Assembly (NCBI GenBank): GCA_963769025.1
Contig: CAVYKI010000009.1
Coordinates: 1,184,001-1,248,000 of the forward strand
Reading direction: 5' to 3'
DNA from: an uncultured Verrucomicrobiae bacterium
Lineage (GTDB): Bacteria > Verrucomicrobiota > Verrucomicrobiia > Chthoniobacterales > Chthoniobacteraceae
DNA length: 64,000 nt
This document shows positions 53,127 through 64,000 of this stretch, one piece after another (the stretch's first letter is position 1; each line of letters begins with the position of its first letter). A program made the position numbers and the translations under genes. The notes beneath the pieces were generated by a model. It ran no database searches and was not told the origin of the DNA. It was given only the letters and a program-made list of their open reading frames with translations.

Positions 53127-53135
53127 GGAAACGCC

Positions 53136-54574
53136 ATGAACCCGCTCGAACGCTTCCGCACCGTGTTTCCCGCGGAGCGGATGCTCACCGGGCCCGCGCA
53201 ACTCGGCGCGTATGAGTCCGACGGGCTCACCGCCTTTCACGCGCGCCCGCTCGGCATCGTCGTGCCGGAGACGCAGGAGGAAGTGATCGCCGCGGTCCGC
53301 CTCTGCCGCGAACTCGCGCTGCCCTTCGTCGCACGCGGCAGCGGCACGAGCCTCTCGGGCGGATCGCTGCCGGTGGAAAATGGAATCGTCATCGCGCTGA
53401 ACCGGCTCAACCGCATCCTTCGCCTCGATCCGCGCGAACGCATCGCCGTCGTCGAGCCGGGCGTCATCAACACGCAGGTGACCGCCGCCGCGGAAGAGCA
53501 CGGGCTCCACTACGCGCCCGACCCGTCGTCGCAGACCATCTGCACCATCGGCGGAAATGTCGCCTTCAACTCCGGCGGCGCGCACTGCCTGAAGTACGGC
53601 ATGACGTCGAACCACGTCCTCGGCATCAAGGCCGTGCTCGCGACCGGCGAAGTCGTGGAATTTGGCGGAGCGAGCCGCGAGCAGGTCGGCGCGGACTTCA
53701 CCGGACTGTTCACCGGCAACGAAGGCCTCTTCGGCATCGCGCTTGAAATCACCTGCAACTGCTGCCGCGCGCCGAGTGCTTTCACACCGTCCTCGCCGGC
53801 TACCGCACGCTCGAGGAAGCCGGCAACGCCGTGAGCGCCGTGGTCGCCAGCGGGCTGCTGCCGGGCGCAATCGAGATCATGGATACGCTCGCGATCCAAG
53901 CCGCCGAGGCCGCTGTCCATGCCAACTACCCGCGCGATTGCGAAGCGATGCTCATCGTCGAACTTGAAGGCCCGCGCGAGAAAGTCGCGGTCGAGCGCGC
54001 TCATCTCGATGCACTCCTCGCCGCATCGCAGCCGGTCGAGACACGCGTCGCACGCAATGGCTCAGAGCGCGGCGCGATCTGGAAAGGCCGCAAGTGCGCG
54101 TTCAGCGCCGTCGGACGCCTGTCGCCGGACTTCATCGTGCAGGACGGCGTCGTCCCACGCCAGCGGCTCGGCGAAGCGCTCCGGCGCATCGGCGAAATGA
54201 GCACCGCCGCCGGCCTGCGCGTCGCGAATGTCTTCCATGCCGGCGATGGCAATCTGCACCCGCTCATCCTCTACAATGGCCGCGAAGCCGGGGCGCTCGC
54301 CCGCGCGGAGGAACTCGCCGGCCGCATCCTGCGCATGTGCGTGGAAATGGGCGGCAGCCTCACCGGCGAGCACGGCATCGGCATGGAAAAGCGCGATTAC
54401 CTTGGCGACATGTTCAGCGCCGCGGAGATCGATCTTATGCAGCGCCTGCGCGCCGCATTCGACCCGCTCGGAATTTCCAATCCCGGAAAAATGTTCCCCG
54501 GCGGCAATGCGCCCGCGCTCGTGCAACACGGCCTCCACCCGCTCGAAGCCTCCGGCCTGCTCAGCCGGGAGTGA
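53136..54574 (+). CDS. glcD: FAD-linked oxidase, glycolate oxidase subunit GlcD-like (frameshift near 53755)
   Basis: [49 protein letters not shown]. Confidence 0.88.
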
Positions 54575-56053: not shown

Positions 56054-56996
56054 ATGAAAATCACCTACGCCTCGCTGCTGGCTGCCGTCGTGCCGACGTT
56101 TGTGGTCCTCGCGTGCGGCTTTGCGTTGCGGCGGTTTCGCGGCCTCCGCTCGGAGGCCGACGCGAGCCTGCTTACCGTCGCGGTCAATTTCCTCTATCCG
56201 TGCTTCATCGCGGACACCATCCTGCGCAGCCCCGCATTGCGCGACGTGCGAACGGTGGCGAGCGCACCGGCGATCGGCTTTGTCCTGCTGCTGCTGTGTT
56301 TTGCGCTCGCGGCTCTCGCCGCGAAATTGCTCCCGCTGAAATGGCCGCAGCCCGCGCGGACCTTTGCGTTCAGCGCGGCGATTCCGAATTGGGGCTATCT
56401 CCCGGTGCCCCTCGTGCAGCAGCTCTTCGGCACGGACACGATGGGCGTCCTCTTCGTCCACAACATCGGCCTCGAACTCGCGCTGTGGTCCGCCGGCGTC
56501 TGGCTGCTCTCGGGGAGCGGTTCGTGGCGGCGGGTCCTCACGGTTCCGTTCTTCGCGATCCTCGGGGCGCTCGCGCTGAATCTCGTCCACGCCGGAGACT
56601 GGCTGCCCGGCGTGGTGCTCGAGTCGCTGCACCTGCTCGGCCAGGCGGCGATTCCCCTCTCGCTCCTGCTCACCGGCGCGGTGCTGGCGGACTCCGTCGT
56701 CTCGCTCCGCGACGACCGCCGCCCGTTGATCACGGTGGCCGGCTGTGTCGTCCGACTCGCGCTGCTCCCGCCGCTGTTCCTCGCCGCCGCGCACTGGCTC
56801 CCGGTGTCGCTGGACCTCAAGCGCGTGCTCGCCGTGCAGGCCGCGATGCCGTGCGCGATGGTCCCCATCCTCCTCTCGCGTCATTACCGCGGAGACATCG
56901 GGATCGCCGTCCAGATCGTCCTCGCGAGCACCGCGCTGGGATTGCTCACGATCCCGCTTCTGGCTGCGCATCGGCTTCGCGTGGCTCGGGCTTTAA
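56054..56996 (+). CDS. AEC (auxin efflux carrier) family transporter (indel near 56958 artificially fuses it to the next ORF)
   Basis: PNWGYLPVP, AIPLSLLLTG, QAAMP; C-terminus WLRIGFAWLGL-TAA in another frame. Confidence 0.85.
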
Positions 56997-57076
56997 AGGG
57001 GTACCGTCGGACTTTCCACCCACGCCGCGGGTTCGACAGCCGCCCGGCCTTCTGCCACAACTCCCCGGCAAAGCCC

Positions 57077-57568
57077 ATGCCCTCCTCACCAAACAACGCC
57101 GCCGTCTTTGCCCTCGATGCCGACTTCCTCTGGGACGACTTGGAGGACGCCATGGCCGGATGCGTGAACTGGCAGAGCGCGAAGCGCGGCAAGATCATCC
57201 CCCTCCTCTTCTTCGCGCCGATGACCGCCCCGGCAAACCCCGACGCGTGGGAACCCCTCCAGGGCCCGCCGCAGCACCTCCTCATCATCTCCATCGAGCA
57301 CAGCTCCGATGCCACCCTCCGCCGCGCCATCCGCCACGCGTCCGGTGTCCTCGGCGAACTCCATGAGCCGGCCAACTGTCCCCACGTGGACATCGCCTTC
57401 GACGGGCATCCCATCGCCGAAGCCTATGCGCAGATGGAGGCTGCCGACATCACCGCCTACCGCTACAGCAGTCTCGTGAAGGACGACGTCTCCTTCTTCT
57501 TCATCCGGGGGCCCGAAGCCGTGCAGGCCTTCGGCCAAGGTCTCCGCCGCGCGACTGCGGGGAAGTAA
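57077..57568 (+). CDS. Hypothetical protein
   Basis: MPSSPNNAAVFALDADFLWDD...; strong C-ending codon bias; no family recognised. Confidence 0.65.
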   Translation: MPSSPNNAAVFALDADFLWDDLEDAMAGCVNWQSAKRGKIIPLLFFAPMTAPANPDAWEPLQGPPQHLLIISIEHSSDATLRRAIRHASGVLGELHEPANCPHVDIAFDGHPIAEAYAQMEAADITAYRYSSLVKDDVSFFFIRGPEAVQAFGQGLRRATAGK

Positions 57569-57755
57569 CATCGCCGCACTGCCGGGCTACCGCTCCATCG
57601 GCACCGGGAACCGGACACGAAGGACGCGGCGTACGGACCACTCGATGACCTTCCGGTCCTTCCGGGAAGTGATTGCCCCTAGCCGCACCTTCGCAGGCGA
57701 GGCCGGATCGTCGGGAACGGGGGAGAAATTCGGATTATCAGCCTGCCCTCGCCCC

Positions 57756-58122
57756 TCAGGCCTCAAACGGATTGATGAGTCGCAGCCCGCTGACGTGTTT
57801 GAAGTCGTCCACGTTCCGCGTCACCAGTTCCAAGCCATGCACCAGGGCCGTAGCGGCGATGATGGCGTCCGCTAGTGCCCATCCTGCTTTCCTGCCGCAA
57901 CGCGATGGCCCGATCGATGACCGCCGTATCCAGCGGATGCACCGTCAGGCGGCGAAACAAAATGTCGAGCGCGGCTTTCTCCTCCGGTTTCAGCCCCGTG
58001 AACCCATACACCTCGATCGGTGTGACGCTGGCCACCCCATTGTCCCCGGAGACCACCAGCGCCTCGATTTCCGGCACGGTCTGGTTCGCTGCGTAAATCA
58101 GAATGTTGCTGTCCAGGAGCAT
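57756..58122 (-). CDS. vapC: PIN-domain toxin (frameshift near 57876)
   Basis: MLLDSNILIY, IEV, then DAIIAATALVHGLELVTRNVDDF in the shifted frame. Confidence 0.88.
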
Positions 58123-58125
58123 CGC

Positions 58126-58386
58126 TCAATCCCGGCCCGGCATCGGACGGTCTTTGCGGATTTCCCGCTGCCAGGCCACGGGGTCGGTGATCTCCTTGAA
58201 CGTGCCCATCTCCCGCAACCGCTTGAGCGCGGCCAGCGCCGCCTCCCGCGTCGGTCGTTCGCTTTCCTCGGACGCAGCTTCGATGGTGGCCGTCACTTTC
58301 AACTTGGAATTGCGCAACTCTGCCGGCAGCGGCAGATGCACCGTGCCATCGGCGTCGGCTTCCAAAATCGCGGTGATCGTGCTCAC
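58126..58386 (-). CDS. Antitoxin paired with VapC
   Basis: 86 aa directly upstream of vapC; AbrB-like ADGTVHLPLP N-terminus and DPVAWQREIR C-terminus. Confidence 0.75.
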   Translation of the reverse strand: MSTITAILEADADGTVHLPLPAELRNSKLKVTATIEAASEESERPTREAALAALKRLREMGTFKEITDPVAWQREIRKDRPMPGRD

Positions 58387-58392
58387 GCAAAG

Positions 58393-58421
58393 AGATTACC
58401 CCGGCGCGTGCCCTGCGTAAA
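58393..58421 (-). promoter_or_regulatory. Putative sigma70 promoter of the TA operon (leaderless)
   Basis: TTTACG-N17-TAATCT, 6 nt before the GTG start; no Shine-Dalgarno. Confidence 0.45.
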
Positions 58422-58497
58422 GCCGCGACTCGCCCGCTTTCTCGTTCCAATCGCGCTCCAAGGCTCCCAGTCCTCGGCTTGCGGAGGCGTCTGCCAA

Positions 58498-61400
58498 TTA
58501 CCCTTTGAGAACCTTCTCCCGCCACCGCCGCACGCTGCTCAGGTCCAGCCGTTCGCCTTTGAACTCGATCTGCTTCACCGGCTTCGTCCCGTTCGCGCTT
58601 TCGCGTTGGAGCACGCTCGATGATTTCCATCCAGCGCACGTCGGCGAATTCCAGCTTCGTCACTGCCGATCGCGCGCTCGTCGTCCTCCGAGAAGGTGCC
58701 GATCACCAGCATCACCGGATGCGGCTGCTGGATCCACGTCTTCACCCAGCGCTGCTTCTTGATCGTGAAAACCTCCGCGCCGTCGGTCTTGCGCTTCGTG
58801 AGGTGGGAATTGCCGGACTTGAGTTGCAGGTAGAGGCCGGCGTGCCGATGCCGTTCGCCGTCGTCATTGGTGAACTCGAGCTCAGCATATCCAGCCCGTC
58901 GTCCTCCGTCCGCCGGAATCTCGAAGCACTTCTGATCGGCGCTGGTGATGCGCGCGCCGACCTCCAGCGCCAGCAGCTTCCCGCGTCGGCGGGTACTCCA
59001 GCTTCGCGAGATCATCGGCCTGCAGTTGCTCGACCTGCGCGCGCACCGCGTCGCTGGCAAACTTCTTCTCCAGCGCATCCCACAGCGGGAAGCGCTCGCC
59101 GCAGTCGTCGCATTCCGTGTCGGCGTTCTGCTTTTCGCGCAGCAGCTTCTTCATCAGCACCTCGGGATTGCCTTTCGGCGCGTGACACTTCGGGCAGACG
59201 TAGTGCCGGAGCCGTTGCGCCTGTTCGCAGGAGGTCTGGAGGTGCGCGTGGATGTAGTTGGCAAAGATCACCTGCTCCTGCTGCGTCACGCCCTTGCCGA
59301 AATAGACGCTGATGTCCCCGTCGCTGCCGCTCTCGCGCGTGAGCTTGAGGCCCATGTGATGATCGCCCGCGAGCGTCACGAAGTCCGCGGCGTCGCGCCA
59401 GAGTTCCTTGAGTTGTGAAGGACTCGCTGTCCGCCAGCTTCACCACCAGCGTCGCGTAGATGTCGTCGAGAAAGCCCTTCACCGCGTAGCTCACGAAGAC
59501 CGACGGATGCTCCAGCACCGCCGGGCGGTCGCGTCCGCAATGGCTCGGGAAGACGAGCTTGTCGCCCTGGCGCAGGCAGAGGCCGCGCTGCTCCAGTTGC
59601 CGCTCCATCTCGCCCAGCACCACGCGCTCCTCGGCGGGCGGCAGGCGCTTCATCTCCACGGGAGCGCCGTCGCGCCCGATGCTCTGGTAGATCAGCTTCC
59701 CTTCCGCGATGCTGCGCAGCGGCAGCACGCCGAGATCGTTCTCCGCGCTGCGCAGGGTGCGAATCACGGCTTGCGCGTAGGCATTGATCCACTCCGGCGC
59801 GAGCAGGATGTAGGTGCCGTAGTCGAGTTCCTTCACCACGCCGGGACCGTCCAGCAGGCCGATCACCGTCTGCAAGGTCTCGTCCGTGAAGCGCGGTTCG
59901 TCCGGCAGGCGCCGCCAGAGCAGTTCGCGCAGTTCCTTGAAGGTGTGCAGCACCTGCCCTTCGTCCCGCAGCTTCAGGATCTCGTCCTTGATCAGTTTGA
60001 AAATGCGCGGCGACGTGCGCTTCTCCATCTGCGCCCAGGATGCCGGCGATCATGGCCGCGCGCAGTTCGTCGCAGCCGGTGCCGTCCTTCGCGCTCGTCT
60101 CATGGTAGGCGAGCCCCTGTTCCTTCGCAAAGGCTTGCAGCTTTCCCCGGCTCGCCTTGAAGCCGGTATCGATCCGCCCGGCCACGAGGAAGTGCGAAAT
60201 CTTCTCCTTCACGCTGCGCCGCAGAGCCGTCTGCCAGTCGCGCAGACCGGGCAGGACATCCTCTTGGTCCGCATTGAACAGTAGCAGGATGAGTGCGGTG
60301 CGATCCATGTAGAGCTGGTGAATGAGGCGTTGATCCGCCTGCCCGCCGAAATCCCATAGCCAGATGTCCCGTTCTACACCTTGCTCCACACTGGCGGCCT
60401 TGAGTTGCCACTGCGTGGACCACGCGCCAACCGTGGAGTCTTCACTCGGCTTCCATTCGCCGGTGGCGAGACGGTGCGTCAACCCGGTCTTGCCCGAGTG
60501 AGTATCGCCGACCAGGAGGACTTTGGCGTTGGTATATTCAATTTGGTCGCGCCAGAGAGGTAGGTCGTACGCGCGAGATGCGGACGCTCGTGCTTCAGCA
60601 GTTAATTCTTCCAAATCCCACACCCTAATTCCTCCGCGCTTGTCGCCGGAGAACGCGTAGCGTTGTTCTGCGCTCCACGCCACGATGCGGATTTCGTGTT
60701 TGTGACCTCTGAGCACTAGCAAACAGCGGCCAGTCTCGATATCCCAAAGGCGCACGGTGTTATCTGACGAACCAGACAATGCACGGCTCGCATCGCTGTT
60801 CAAAGCCAAGCTCGTAACTCGATTCGCATGGCCTTCGAGCACACGTAAACATCGCGCCGAGTCCGCCTCCCAAACACGAATAGTTCTATCGTGTGAACCG
60901 GACAATATGAGACGTTGATCGGCACTCCACGCTATACTCCGAACCTGACCAGTATGGCCTCCAAACACGCGAAGACACTCTCCGGTCTCAATGTCCCATT
61001 GGCGCACACTGTGGTCGTCAGAGCATGACAAGCCGCGGCGCTGGTCAGCACTCCACATTACACGCCAAACTAGAGAATAGTGTCCTTCAAACACGCGAAG
61101 ACATTGGCCTGTCTCAATATCCCATAGCCGCATCGTGCCATCGTCCGAGCCCGAAAGTGCGCGAGCGTTGTCCGCGCTCCACTCGGCGTGCCGAACCGCG
61201 TTTGTGTGACCCTGAAAGACTCGATTACGTCTCCGTGAATTAAAATCCCACATTCGCATGGTCTTGTCCGAAGAGCATGTGAGAATACGCCGCTGGTCAT
61301 TGCTCAGGGCGACACTGTTCACACGACTAGCATGGCCTCTGAAAGTAAGGAGGCACAATCCCGTCTTCGCATCCCAAAGCCGCGCTATGTTCTCAGTCCC

Positions 61401-61925
61401 ACCTGTTAGCGCGTGGTTACCGCTTGGGCTGAACACAAACGCTAAAAGCCTCCCCTTCGATCGAAGCTGGACGGCATTTGCCTCAACCTCCTCCTCCTCT
61501 TCCGTCGGCATCGTAGGAGGCGGCCGGCACGCTTCGAGGAGCTTCACATATTCCTGCTCGCGCTCTGCCGGGCGCCAGTTGATGTAAAGGAATTGCGCCA
61601 GGGAGCCTTTGATGGGGGCGTCGTCGAGGCGCAGGGGAAGGAAGCGGCGCTCCTTGTTCAGCGGGTCGCGAAAGCGGAACGTGCCGGACTCCAACTGCGC
61701 CCAGTCCGAGCCGAACGCATTCGCCGACATGCAGAGCACGAGCACGCGGGAGCGCTCCAGCCCTTCCTCGATCTTCGCCGGAATGCTGTCGCCGGGCCGG
61801 ATCTCCCATTCATCGAACCACACCCGCAGCCCGTCCTTCCTCAGCCGCTCCGCCACGTCGCGCACGACCGGCTTGTCCTTCGCGCTGTGGCTCAGGAAGA
61901 CGTCGTAGGGGAAATCCTCAGGCAT
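58498..61925 (-). CDS. TIR-WD40-Roc/COR-Zn ribbon-DUF4365-like nuclease multidomain protein (several frameshifts in the 3' half)
   Basis: TIR YDVFLSH...SDWAQLE; 7 WD40 blades; Roc GDTHSGKT, WDFGGQ, ETSAK; COR LAPEWINAY, LVFPS; CPKC/CDDC; DDGLD..LEF...LYLQLKSGNS; stop TAA at 58498-58500. Confidence 0.85.
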
Positions 61926-62184
61926 AAGGCGGTGGCATTTGGGACGGCGAGGACTGCGCGGCGTTTACATTTGCCGCTGCGTCCGCTGCGCCGCCGGGTG
62001 CTGTCTCGTGTGTCATGCCGCGTGGGAGGATGGAGATTCGCCGCGGAGGATGCACGATCGCGGGAAGCGAGGCGAGGAGGAAAAGCAGGACTTGGATTCG
62101 AGTGGAACGAAAAGCCTGCCGCAGGCAGCCCGAAGGGCAGCGCCGGAGGGCGCTGGCAAGCTTGGAGACGCGGGACTGGAGAGT

Positions 62185-62469
62185 TCACCAGCGGCGCGCC
62201 CCTTGCCGGGCGAAGGGCGGGCGGCGGCAGATGACTACGGTGACGGCTTCCAGCGCGGCGGCGAGGCGGTTCTCGACGCAGAGCTTGTCGAGGATGCGGC
62301 GGACGTGGGTGGAGACGGTGAAGTTGCGGAGGTCCATGATGCCGGCGATTTCGGGGTCGGTCTTGGCGTGGAGGATCCATCGCAGCACTTCGCCCTCGCT
62401 CGGGGTGAGCAGGGGGAATGAATCGCGGAGGGTGACGGGCGTGAGTTCGTAGGGAGCGGGAATTTTCAT
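62185..62469 (-). CDS. Stand-alone LuxR-type helix-turn-helix regulator
   Basis: LTPSEGEVLRWILHAKTDPEIAGIMDLRNFTVSTHVRRILDKLCVENR. Confidence 0.85.
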   Translation of the reverse strand: MKIPAPYELTPVTLRDSFPLLTPSEGEVLRWILHAKTDPEIAGIMDLRNFTVSTHVRRILDKLCVENRLAAALEAVTVVICRRPPFARQGARRW

Positions 62470-62838
62470 GGCACAGCCATTTCAGATAGCGTGCCAAGTG
62501 GCATCCGTAGGTCTCGGTATGGTGGGAAGAAGGGCCGGGTGCCAGCATCCGCGCCATGAAACGGAGTAAGCCGCACACTTCTCTCGCCGCCACTGGCGGC
62601 AATGCGTGTTCCCTCCACAGCACGGCGGCCGTGTTCAGGCGCGGCGGATGGCGCGGGCCGGGACATGTGGTGGTGGGCGGTGACACCTTCCGTGGCATGG
62701 GGACGTCAGTCATGGCTGTCTATTTTCAGGGGAAGGAGTGGCAAATGACTGCCACGGGCGTCGCTGCGGGGGCAGGACGCCTGCTTGGTTCGGAAACTGC
62801 ATTCCGTCCGATGCGCGGGGGCCTTTCCGAACCCGCAG

Positions 62839-63258
62839 CAACAGTTGCCGGAGCATGGGGGAGACTCCTCCGGCCTTGGACAACACTTGCCGGAGCATGG
62901 GGGAGACTCCCCCGGCCTTGGACAACACTTGCCGGAGCTTGGGGGAGACTCCCCCGGCCTTGGACAACACTTGCCGGAGCATGGGGGAGACTCCCCCGGC
63001 CTTGGGCAACACTTGCCGGAGCATGGGGGCGACTCCTCCGGCCTTGGACAACACTTGCCGGAGCATGGGGGAAACTCTCCCGGCCTTGGACAACACTTGC
63101 CGGAGCATGGGGGAGACTCCCCCGGCCTTGGACAACACTTGCCGGAGCATGGGGGAGACTCCCCCGGCCTTGGGCAACACTTGGTGGCGCCTGGGGGAGA
63201 CTCCTTCACCTCCGGACAACAGTTGGCACAGCTTTGGGGAGGCTCCTTTGCCTCGGAA
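62839..63258. repeat. 42-bp tandem repeat: 8 near-identical plus 2 degenerate units
   Basis: Unit CAACACTTGCCGGAGCATGGGGGAGACTCCCCCGGCCTTGGA at 62839, 62881, 62923, 62965, 63007, 63049, 63091, 63133; degenerate at 63175 and 63217. Confidence 0.97.
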
Positions 63259-63305
63259 AACGCCTGTTTTCCGGCTTGGCCGCCCTGATTACCCCCGCGC
63301 CCGCG

Positions 63306-64000
63306 ATGGCGGCGTGGGATGAAGGGGCCTGGGATGATGGATTCTGGGACACGCCGACGCCGCCCGCCTTTCCGCTGATTCCGCAGGCCAAAAAACCAAC
63401 CAACCGAAAAACCATGGCTACAAACCCAACCCCCGATGACGATGACGTGCTCATCTCCCTGACCGAAGAACTCGCCGACGGCTGCCACCTGCACGAGGTG
63501 GCCCTCGGCATCAAGCAACAGACCGAGGCGGTCATGCGCGCCGGCCTGCTGGCGTCCAAGACCGCCCTCCTGGGCCTCGGCGCCGCGCGCGTGCTGGTGG
63601 ACCAGAAGAACGACCTCTTCCAGGCGGCGGACGCCGCGGGCGAGACCGTGCTGAAGAACTGCCGCCTGCGGCTGGTGAAACTCTTCGGCACGCAATACAA
63701 CTCCAACTGGCAGGCCGCGGGCTGGCCCGACCAGTCCACGAAAATCCCGCTCAGCCAGGACAAGCGCCTGACGCTGCTCGGCGCGCTGGATCTCTACTTC
63801 ACCGCCAATCCCTCCGCGGAGAGCGAGGACATGGACGCGACCGCCGCCATCTGCCACACCGCGCACGAGGCCATCAGCGATGCGCGGGGCGCGGTGAATG
63901 TGGCGGATTCCGGAGTGACGACGGCGAAGAACACGCTGACGAGCACGATGAAGACCCTGCGCAAGCGGGTGCGCGGCCTCATCGTGGAACTGGGCACGCT
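63306..64000 (+). CDS. Hypothetical helical protein, partial; resembles the N-terminal part of PVC proteins that end in a fibronectin type III domain
   Basis: Open frame from ATG 63306 (or 63414, MATNPTPDD...) to the window end with strong GC3 bias; YNSNWQAAGW motif. The Fn3 call is recalled resemblance; that domain is not inside the window. Confidence 0.7.
   Translation, partial: MAAWDEGAWDDGFWDTPTPPAFPLIPQAKKPTNRKTMATNPTPDDDDVLISLTEELADGCHLHEVALGIKQQTEAVMRAGLLASKTALLGLGAARVLVDQKNDLFQAADAAGETVLKNCRLRLVKLFGTQYNSNWQAAGWPDQSTKIPLSQDKRLTLLGALDLYFTANPSAESEDMDATAAICHTAHEAISDARGAVNVADSGVTTAKNTLTSTMKTLRKRVRGLIVELGT

Follow-up and report, generated by a model that had tools for sequence, protein, structure and literature searches.

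A frame-broken TIR-WD40-Roc-DUF4365 gene in a verrucomicrobial genomic island as a candidate Roco-type conflict-system gene

The DNA analysed here, called the window below, is a stretch of 64,000 nucleotides from an uncultured Verrucomicrobiae bacterium (assembly GCA_963769025.1, contig CAVYKI010000009.1, forward-strand positions 1,184,001 to 1,248,000). On its minus strand, from the ATG start at 61925 to the TAA stop at 58498-58500, lies a gene for a protein in which a TIR domain, a WD40 propeller, a Roc (Ras-of-complex) GTPase, a COR-like region, a zinc ribbon and a DUF4365 nuclease-like domain follow one another. The coding sequence switches among all three minus-strand frames, and the whole gene has to be read in three frames because seven indels interrupt it. 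In a frameshift-tolerant protein-to-DNA alignment 842 of the 1134 aligned codons are identical to P0073, the closest intact relative and our reference for the identities of single domains. A sigma-70-like promoter was searched for and none was found.

The initial annotation, made from the letters alone, had described a TIR domain that keeps the glutamate of its W-x-x-x-E motif, a seven-bladed WD40 propeller, a Roc/COR unit, a four-cysteine ribbon and a C-terminal nuclease. All the motifs that it named, from SDWAQLE in the TIR domain to LQLK near the C-terminus, were located (Table 1). Pfam was run on the separate open pieces of the window gene, and the intact P0073 was scanned for comparison. 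TIR_2, WD40, Roc and DUF4365 matched, while COR-A and COR-B gave no match at E ≤ 1 in either. The DUF4365 match is 2.6e-5 on the broken window piece 58578-59150 and 2.3e-14 on the C-terminal part of P0073. In the propeller, GH (six times) and WD/WE (seven times) recur with a period of 42 residues, which fits seven blades. The identity of the Roc domain is clear from its Pfam match and its motifs, which include, besides those in the table, AGRID (a variant of NKxD) and ETSAK; the only NTPase families matched by the window pieces and P0073 are Ras, Roc and Arf. A list of 30 motif positions was drawn up, and the window copy retains all 23 of the key residues checked in it. The observation of a TIR-WD40-Roc-ribbon-nuclease gene is thus confirmed, and COR is the one proposed part whose support is weak.

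Table 1. Positions of the gene, its domains and motifs, and further features (window numbering unless a locus is named)
Feature	Position	Strand	Remarks
Whole gene	58498..61925	-	~1140 codons; TIR-WD40-Roc-COR-like-Zn ribbon-DUF4365; 7 indels
TIR domain, residues 1-140, W75...E79	61506..61925	-	Pfam TIR_2 5.3e-29, residues 9-129
SDWAQLE (TIR W...E motif)	61689-61709	-	
WD40 propeller, seven blades	60561..61463	-	Pfam WD40 1.7e-64
Roc GTPase	60051..60524	-	Pfam Roc 3.4e-19, Ras 1.3e-19, residues 468-625
GDTHSGKT (P-loop of Roc)	60486-60509	-	
DFGGQ of Roc	60339-60353	-	
COR-like region, 207 residues	59417..60037	-	97% identical to P0073
Middle region with four-Cys zinc ribbon	58996..59415	-	CPKC and CDDC
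CPKC of ribbon	59185-59196	-	
CDDC of ribbon	59101-59112	-	
Predicted DUF4365 nuclease (SPARDA 'DREN'-type PD-(D/E)xK), D-G-D...E...Q-L-K	58498..58994	-	4 of 7 frameshifts inside
DDGLD of predicted nuclease	58889-58903	-	
LQLK of predicted nuclease	58812-58829	-	
Island, part in window	56999..64000	.	continues to about window-equivalent 65221
Two small ORFs just downstream of gene	57763-58386	-	PIN-like toxin and antitoxin-like, by eye
GerE/LuxR gene	62185-62469	-	inside island
42-bp-repeat ORF	62556 to about 64331	+	inside island, crosses window end
PtuA fusion loci	L068:9992-15193; L073:9977-15190		

Both ends of the protein resemble enzymes. The solved TIR chains nearest to the N-terminal domain are 7uxr_A (8.7e-15), 3h16_A and 8g83_A, the last titled NAD(+) hydrolase AbTIR (2.8e-13), and the W..E residues are aligned. 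By fold and conserved glutamate the domain would belong to the catalytic (NADase-type) class. The TIR group of AbTIR presumably makes cyclic ADP-ribose isomers. PADLOC has no model that matches the whole protein; the TIR part alone matches (PDC-S66, ThsB and others), and the TIR-NLR model covers only residues 9-79, that is TIR, with 3.2e-7 on the homologue P0052 and 4.5e-7 on the window piece. At the C-terminus, phmmer of the DUF4365 part against solved structures gave no match. A profile of 45 family C-termini found the solved chains 9qbq_A (2.6e-4) and 9jsb_D, a DREN-APAZ chain (0.31), with QLK placed on QVK/QIK. In TmuRE, a SPARDA DUF4365 nuclease, Q62 and K64 are named as potential active-site residues and the Q62A/K64A protein is the inactive mutant (PMC10810196). 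The DUF4365 protein of NbaSPARDA is described as an inactive monomer when alone, and filament formation brings it into a tetramer that acts as a collateral nuclease (PMC12205087). Pfam match, family profile and the Q-x-K motif that was mutated in the SPARDA enzyme all point to a DUF4365/DREN nuclease of the PD-(D/E)xK type at the C-terminus of our protein.

The gene belongs to a large family. With its 632-residue N-terminal part as query, many homologues of 1128-1160 residues were found at 100% query cover and 56-67% identity. A second group of about 1400 residues has a double propeller and includes Acaryochloris marina proteins named 'TIR domain-containing'. When species were scanned by one representative genome each, 273 candidate stretches came up, 267 of them encoding relatives, and 80 loci were kept. 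Most are from Acidobacteriota; the others are from Verrucomicrobiota, Planctomycetota, several Pseudomonadota, Bacteroidota, Zixibacteria, Deferribacterota and further groups. A single open reading frame (ORF) of 1115-1175 codons is present in 45 of the 80. When the COR-like piece was used as the only query against 1.84 billion cluster representatives, 898 matched at E ≤ 0.001 and 90 at E ≤ 1e-30. Forty full-length members were aligned to measure conservation. The TIR glutamate E79 is invariant among them (40/40), as are G477, G482, K483, D529, G532, Q533, R588 and D590 of Roc, C915, C918 and C943 of the ribbon, and E1020 of the nuclease. The fourth ribbon cysteine, C946, and the nuclease residues D1012, G1014, D1016, Q1036 and K1038 are each shared by 90% or more of the members. 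The window copy has all four cysteines as well as D1016, E1020, Q1036 and K1038.

A tree was made by a quick method from the 45 intact loci, covering Roc to the end of the protein; the window and the 35 loci that are broken, cut off or longer were left out. Phyla are interleaved on it, and well-supported branches force at least six changes for Acidobacteriota and three each for Verrucomicrobiota and Pseudomonadota, numbers that binning errors and paralogy could inflate. The family is horizontally mixed and widespread over many phyla. A search of plasmids gave only two distant matches (31% identity, Nostoc megaplasmids) and a search of phages none. Within the genus the COR-like module was seen in 3 of 30 genomes, one being a contig-end fragment and another a distant paralogue. 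Among metagenome proteins, P0220 has Roc-COR-like-DUF4365 fused to a phage-integrase domain, P0201 carries a response-regulator receiver N-terminal of TIR-WD40-Roc, and P0188 has two DUF4365-type stretches.

The WD40 propeller is the part of the protein that changes fastest. Identity between the window copy and P0073 is 74% in TIR, 90% in Roc, 97% in the COR-like region, 76% in the middle region with the ribbon and 79% in the nuclease, and 49% in WD40. Similarly, the best pairwise identity among the 40 members is 75% for WD40 and 91-100% for each other domain. The variation is not spread evenly. In 239 repeats, 5 of the 42 repeat positions are hypervariable, namely 18, 19 and 21 after GH and 37 and 39 flanking the conserved Asp, and the scaffold positions are conserved. 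We take these five to be the top-face contact positions of WD40 propellers. The DNA of the propeller differs from the genome too: its guanine-plus-cytosine (GC) content, measured over 60560-61505 with the preceding linker included, is 0.554 as compared to 0.645 in the genome, nine points lower, and only 0.9% of 900-base genome windows are as low. No tandem repeat at the DNA level was found in the WD40 region. It is likely that the propeller is a ligand sensor.

The gene lies inside an 8.2-kb island that has no counterpart at this site in three genomes of the same genus. Homology to these genomes ends at 56990-56998 and restarts at window-equivalent 65212-65233, whereas in the relatives only 39-65 bp separate the two flanks. 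The island is flanked by a transporter gene and a lactate-permease gene, with 10.1 kb between them here. In 6 of 12 same-genus genomes, to which the three belong, both genes are on one contig and the distance is 1.9-2.2 kb. Neither a tRNA nor terminal repeats were found at the island ends. No neighbour is conserved within 10 kb to the left or right of the 80 loci, where the most frequent neighbour cluster occurs in 7 of 80, and therefore the gene stands alone.

The reading that we favour, and hold to be just on the probable side, is that the locus contains one functional gene for a stand-alone Roco-type conflict-system protein (Roc plus a divergent COR), broken only in the assembly. In the proposed mechanism the hypervariable top face of the propeller would bind an invader (phage) protein, and this binding would release the Roc/COR switch so that its nucleotide and oligomeric state change. 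The resulting assembly could join the N-terminal TIR domains, leading to cleavage of NAD+ or to an NAD-derived product, and could also bring the C-terminal DUF4365 domains into an active oligomer that would degrade DNA indiscriminately. The infected cell would then halt or die (abortive infection). All of these steps, and the immune role of the gene itself, are what we infer. The initial annotation had proposed an immune receptor of sensor-switch-effector design. The domain order and the design hold, the location of the gene in a variable island agrees with that proposal, and the immune function and the COR part are to be taken as presumed.

Several observations weigh against this reading. The excess of defence genes beside homologues that the initial annotation had suggested looking for was not seen: PADLOC matches occur in 12 of 150 near neighbours and in 14 of 150 genes seven to eight genes away, without a gradient (E ≤ 1e-8; near genes sampled from 288 and far ones from 191, with crude ORF calls of our own and no genome-wide baseline). 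Among the island ORFs that were scanned there is no integrase family or recognised defence gene, and the island has no tRNA. Literature searches for Roco proteins in phage defence and for this architecture found no experimental study, in agreement with the initial annotation. In the switch, the G4 motif is GRID instead of NKxD, so GTP specificity is assumed only; COR-A and COR-B of Pfam are silent; a profile of the COR-like region with the ribbon found no COR among PDB chains but only C2H2 zinc fingers at E > 0.08; and the one long alignment to canonical COR, given below, has a probability of 13%. As to the reading frame, all seven frameshifts are crowded into the last 1.55 kb of the gene and the first 1.9 kb is free of them, which is uneven for random errors; homopolymer density fails to account for this clustering, and the short-read contigs that restore the frame derive from relatives, not from the source organism.

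It is possible that the protein is not directed against phages at all, and is instead a self/non-self or developmental cell-death switch like fungal HET-E/NWD, or a stress-signalling Roco with a signal-making TIR. We consider this unlikely, though it has points in its favour. A conserved WD40 scaffold with a few hypervariable positions is also the pattern of fungal allorecognition WD40 genes, one of the nearest solved TIRs is the chain titled NAD(+) hydrolase AbTIR, and defence genes are not in excess near the homologues. However, relatives are fused in frame to a component of the anti-phage system Septu. In two of the 80 loci, both from Acidobacteriota (L068 and L073), no stop codon ends the family ORF, which passes first into a HEAT-like stretch and then into an ATPase resembling PtuA (~1e-46), and in L073 the next gene (L073:15138-15986) is PtuB (8.9e-76). 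The same fusion is present in 3 of 14 odd-length representatives, the metagenome proteins P0149, P0230 and P0155, of which P0149 has no propeller. The in-frame fusion to PtuA is a stronger link to defence than the neighbour test. Moreover, DUF4365 is an experimentally shown defence effector, the single-copy location in an island, the patchy distribution and the mixing across phyla fit defence genes, and there is no conserved partner that could read a TIR signal.

Next to the conflict-system reading we tentatively put forward a more general one, which we rate somewhat short of an even chance. The family may be a class of GTPase-switched, non-STAND pattern-recognition receptors of bacteria, in which ligand capture by the hypervariable WD40 face would lead to Roc/COR-dependent assembly and fire a TIR NADase and a SPARDA-type collateral nuclease together. 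The WD40 cassette would be exchanged or diversified, and the constant TIR and Roc-to-nuclease parts would pass between phyla almost unchanged.

A different doubt concerns the region that follows Roc. If it is not COR, the protein would combine a Ras-like GTPase with unrelated helical and winged-helix domains, and its switch would be unlike a Roco dimer. Pfam is silent here, although the canonical Roco of the same genome scores 9.9e-25 for COR-A, and phmmer of the COR-like piece against PDB structures and hhalign of the COR-like and ribbon profile to that single canonical protein gave no match either. Three results stand on the other side. HMMER alignments to the Roco chains 3dpu_A, 6hlu_A, 8r4b_A and 4wnr_A extend about 100 residues beyond the G domain, while Rab matches end at its boundary and among solved chains only the Roco ones extend. 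Against a set of 23 canonical Roc-COR-TIR proteins, hhalign gave one collinear alignment of 257 columns that spans exactly COR-A and COR-B, with E 0.0022. In an ESM Atlas feature search with residues 633-985, 13 of the 30 matches fall in COR-A/COR-B clusters, which score up to 0.92 and 0.91. A homodimer prediction for two copies of the COR-like and ribbon part scored 0.40 as compared to a mark of 0.42 and speaks neither for nor against. The three results weakly support a divergent COR after Roc, and we regard an unrelated domain in this place as distinctly improbable.

The canonical Roco just mentioned lies at L083:460-3393 on the minus strand (about G000:C9:1350951-1353884), roughly 105 kb past the window. 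It has 977 residues with LRR_4, Roc (1e-14), COR-A, COR-B (8.1e-5) and a C-terminal TIR_2 (1e-12). Among 151 genomes sampled from the phylum, this is the only one with COR-A.

The frameshifts lie at about 60038, 59416, 58995, 58910, 58885, 58658 and 58621, as located by tblastn of two intact homologues and by our frameshift-tolerant alignment. If the indels were real, the gene would be a decaying pseudogene, a dead remnant of an acquired island. Its density of seven frameshifts in 1.55 kb (~4.5 per kb), as compared to ~2 per kb in rpoB, and the absence of frameshifts from the first 1.9 kb, for which homopolymer density does not account, would fit this. However, essential genes of this genome (5.34 Mb, 13 contigs, marker completeness 83%) are broken in the same way: rpoB is in 9 frame pieces, and rpoC is matched in 9 separate places, two of which share one open frame. 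Not far from our gene, an FAD oxidase gene (window 53127-54571) and a DUF485 gene (L002:8090-8551) are each split in two. We aligned to the gene the short-read contigs assembled from four public runs, which belong to four studies. At six of the seven sites these contigs have an indel that brings the frame back: -1 at 58622, -2 at 58884, -1 at 58911, 58996 and 59416, and CG added behind 60037. Site 58658 is absent among the alignments shown, where contigs stop with loose ends. Between the window and one contig of 677 letters there are only two substitutions and one gap, a ratio of indels to substitutions that is typical of consensus errors and argues against decay. The WD40 part 60578-61545 has almost no contig cover at ≥88% likeness in the four runs and was not used as evidence. 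Sixteen further runs contain 20-29% of the sequence words and enter neither this comparison nor the habitats named below. All catalytic residues are retained, too, and over the COR-like piece identity to the intact homologue amounts to 97%. We consider decay very unlikely. The seven frameshifts are most likely assembly errors. Once they are removed, the frame is continuous as compared to both the intact homologues and the short-read contigs of relatives, and the pieces join into one ORF, as had been supposed from the letters. Frame breaks pervade the assembly, and no gene of this genome should be called a 'pseudogene' before reads have been consulted.

The contigs come from studies of freshwater sediment, sediment, glacier and biocrust, and they are 88-99% identical in DNA to 58520-60100 and 61546-61908. 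Such identity in four unrelated studies is striking for a gene that is found in several phyla.

The architecture is already known from prediction. Kaur, Iyer, Burroughs and Aravind (eLife 2021, PMC8195603) describe predicted prokaryotic counter-invader systems around an 'AP-GTPase' (Roc) and COR, with fast-evolving leucine-rich repeats (LRRs) and at least 24 effector domains. In supplementary file 6 of that paper (Figure 6 source data) 'TIR+BetaPropeller+AP-GTPase' has 28 occurrences. The proteins listed there have 1000-1449 residues, some are named 'DUF4365 domain-containing' by NCBI, and the sources include Acidobacteria, Chlorobi, Geobacteraceae, Kentron, Methanoperedens and Acaryochloris. 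The idea put forward in the initial annotation had thus been predicted, and this architecture catalogued, in 2021. With its catalogued architecture, diverging WD40 and effector variants, our gene can be counted among the AP-GTPase counter-invader systems; its membership in a computationally predicted family is supported, and the interpretation is not new.

As in the systems of that paper, a Roc-type core is preceded by fast-evolving repeats and the effectors, including TIR and restriction-endonuclease domains, can be swapped. Several differently armed copies per genome are possible as well, and here the genome also has the LRR-Roc-COR-TIR protein. Unlike the order LRR-GTPase-COR-effector given in the text of the paper, our protein has a WD40 sensor and an N-terminal TIR, and the architecture string in its supplement does not carry the COR-like, zinc-ribbon and DUF4365 parts. 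A similar comparison can be made with CtRoco (PDB 3dpu, 6hlu, 8r4b) and the LRRK2-type Roco proteins. The repeats are again N-terminal and the part after Roc can be aligned, if weakly, to COR-A/COR-B, but in our protein WD40 stands in place of the LRRs, COR is invisible to Pfam, enzymatic effectors are found at both ends and GRID replaces NKxD. CtRoco is reported to alternate between a dimeric and a monomeric form with GTP (PMC5714945, PMC11052575).

The gene shares its nuclease family and the Q-x-K motif with SPARDA, where the nuclease domain is switched on by induced tetramerisation, the same logic as proposed here. Unlike SPARDA, it has no Argonaute or APAZ part and nothing that points to a nucleic-acid guide; the trigger would be the propeller and the GTPase of the same polypeptide. 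A SPARDA system was ruled out, as no Argonaute or APAZ was matched in the island ORFs scanned and the 80 loci have no conserved neighbour. With STAND receptors (Avs, bacterial NLR-like proteins, TIR-NLR) the protein shares the TIR effector and the tripartite layout on one chain, in which an effector and a repeat sensor are joined to an NTPase switch. It differs from them by its Ras-like GTPase in place of a STAND ATPase and by the order effector-sensor-switch-effector. A STAND NLR-like receptor was ruled out as well, since the NTPase matches Ras/Roc/Arf only and the TIR-NLR model covers only TIR. Septu was ruled out for this locus because PADLOC found no PtuA or PtuB among the island ORFs scanned, although relatives of the gene are fused to a PtuA-like ATPase.

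To our knowledge, the role of prokaryotic Roco (LRRK2-like) GTPases has been open since their discovery, and the only well-studied one that we know of is that of Chlorobium tepidum, a structural stand-in for LRRK2. The family described here offers a testable answer, as it is encoded by a single self-contained gene, working assays exist for both effector chemistries (NADase and DNase), its switch residues are obvious targets for mutation and even close relatives differ in the sensor. Should protection against phage be seen with a member, a GTPase-based branch would be added to the bacterial NLR-like receptors, a dual-effector abortive system would have been demonstrated, and an origin of the Roc-COR switch in immunity would gain support. 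If the non-STAND receptor reading is true, prokaryotic Roco proteins would have a defined function and the LRRK2/DAPK switch would be rooted in immunity. Beyond the family, the present copy adds little: an 8.2-kb island with clean borders, and a clear example of how indels in an assembly can mislead.

Some minor features of the island and its borders should be mentioned. The two small ORFs just downstream of the gene (Table 1) have no Pfam and no PADLOC match, and the larger one may be cut by a frameshift. The 42-bp-repeat ORF contains at least 9 tandem copies at 62755-63289, encoding a 14-residue unit (TLAGAWGRLPRPWT-like), and its C-terminal part resembles unnamed ESM Atlas clusters only (0.93). 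Near the right end of the island, at L087:10340-10449 (window-equivalent 64340-64449), a run of GAAGGAT heptamers stands opposite its own reverse complement; the arms are 38 nt long, 89% complementary and 33-50 bases apart. At the left end, the transporter ORF (56054-57568, plus strand) is about 190 codons longer than those of the relatives (316-330 aa). The extension is probably in-frame island sequence because the island starts at the natural 3' end of this ORF.

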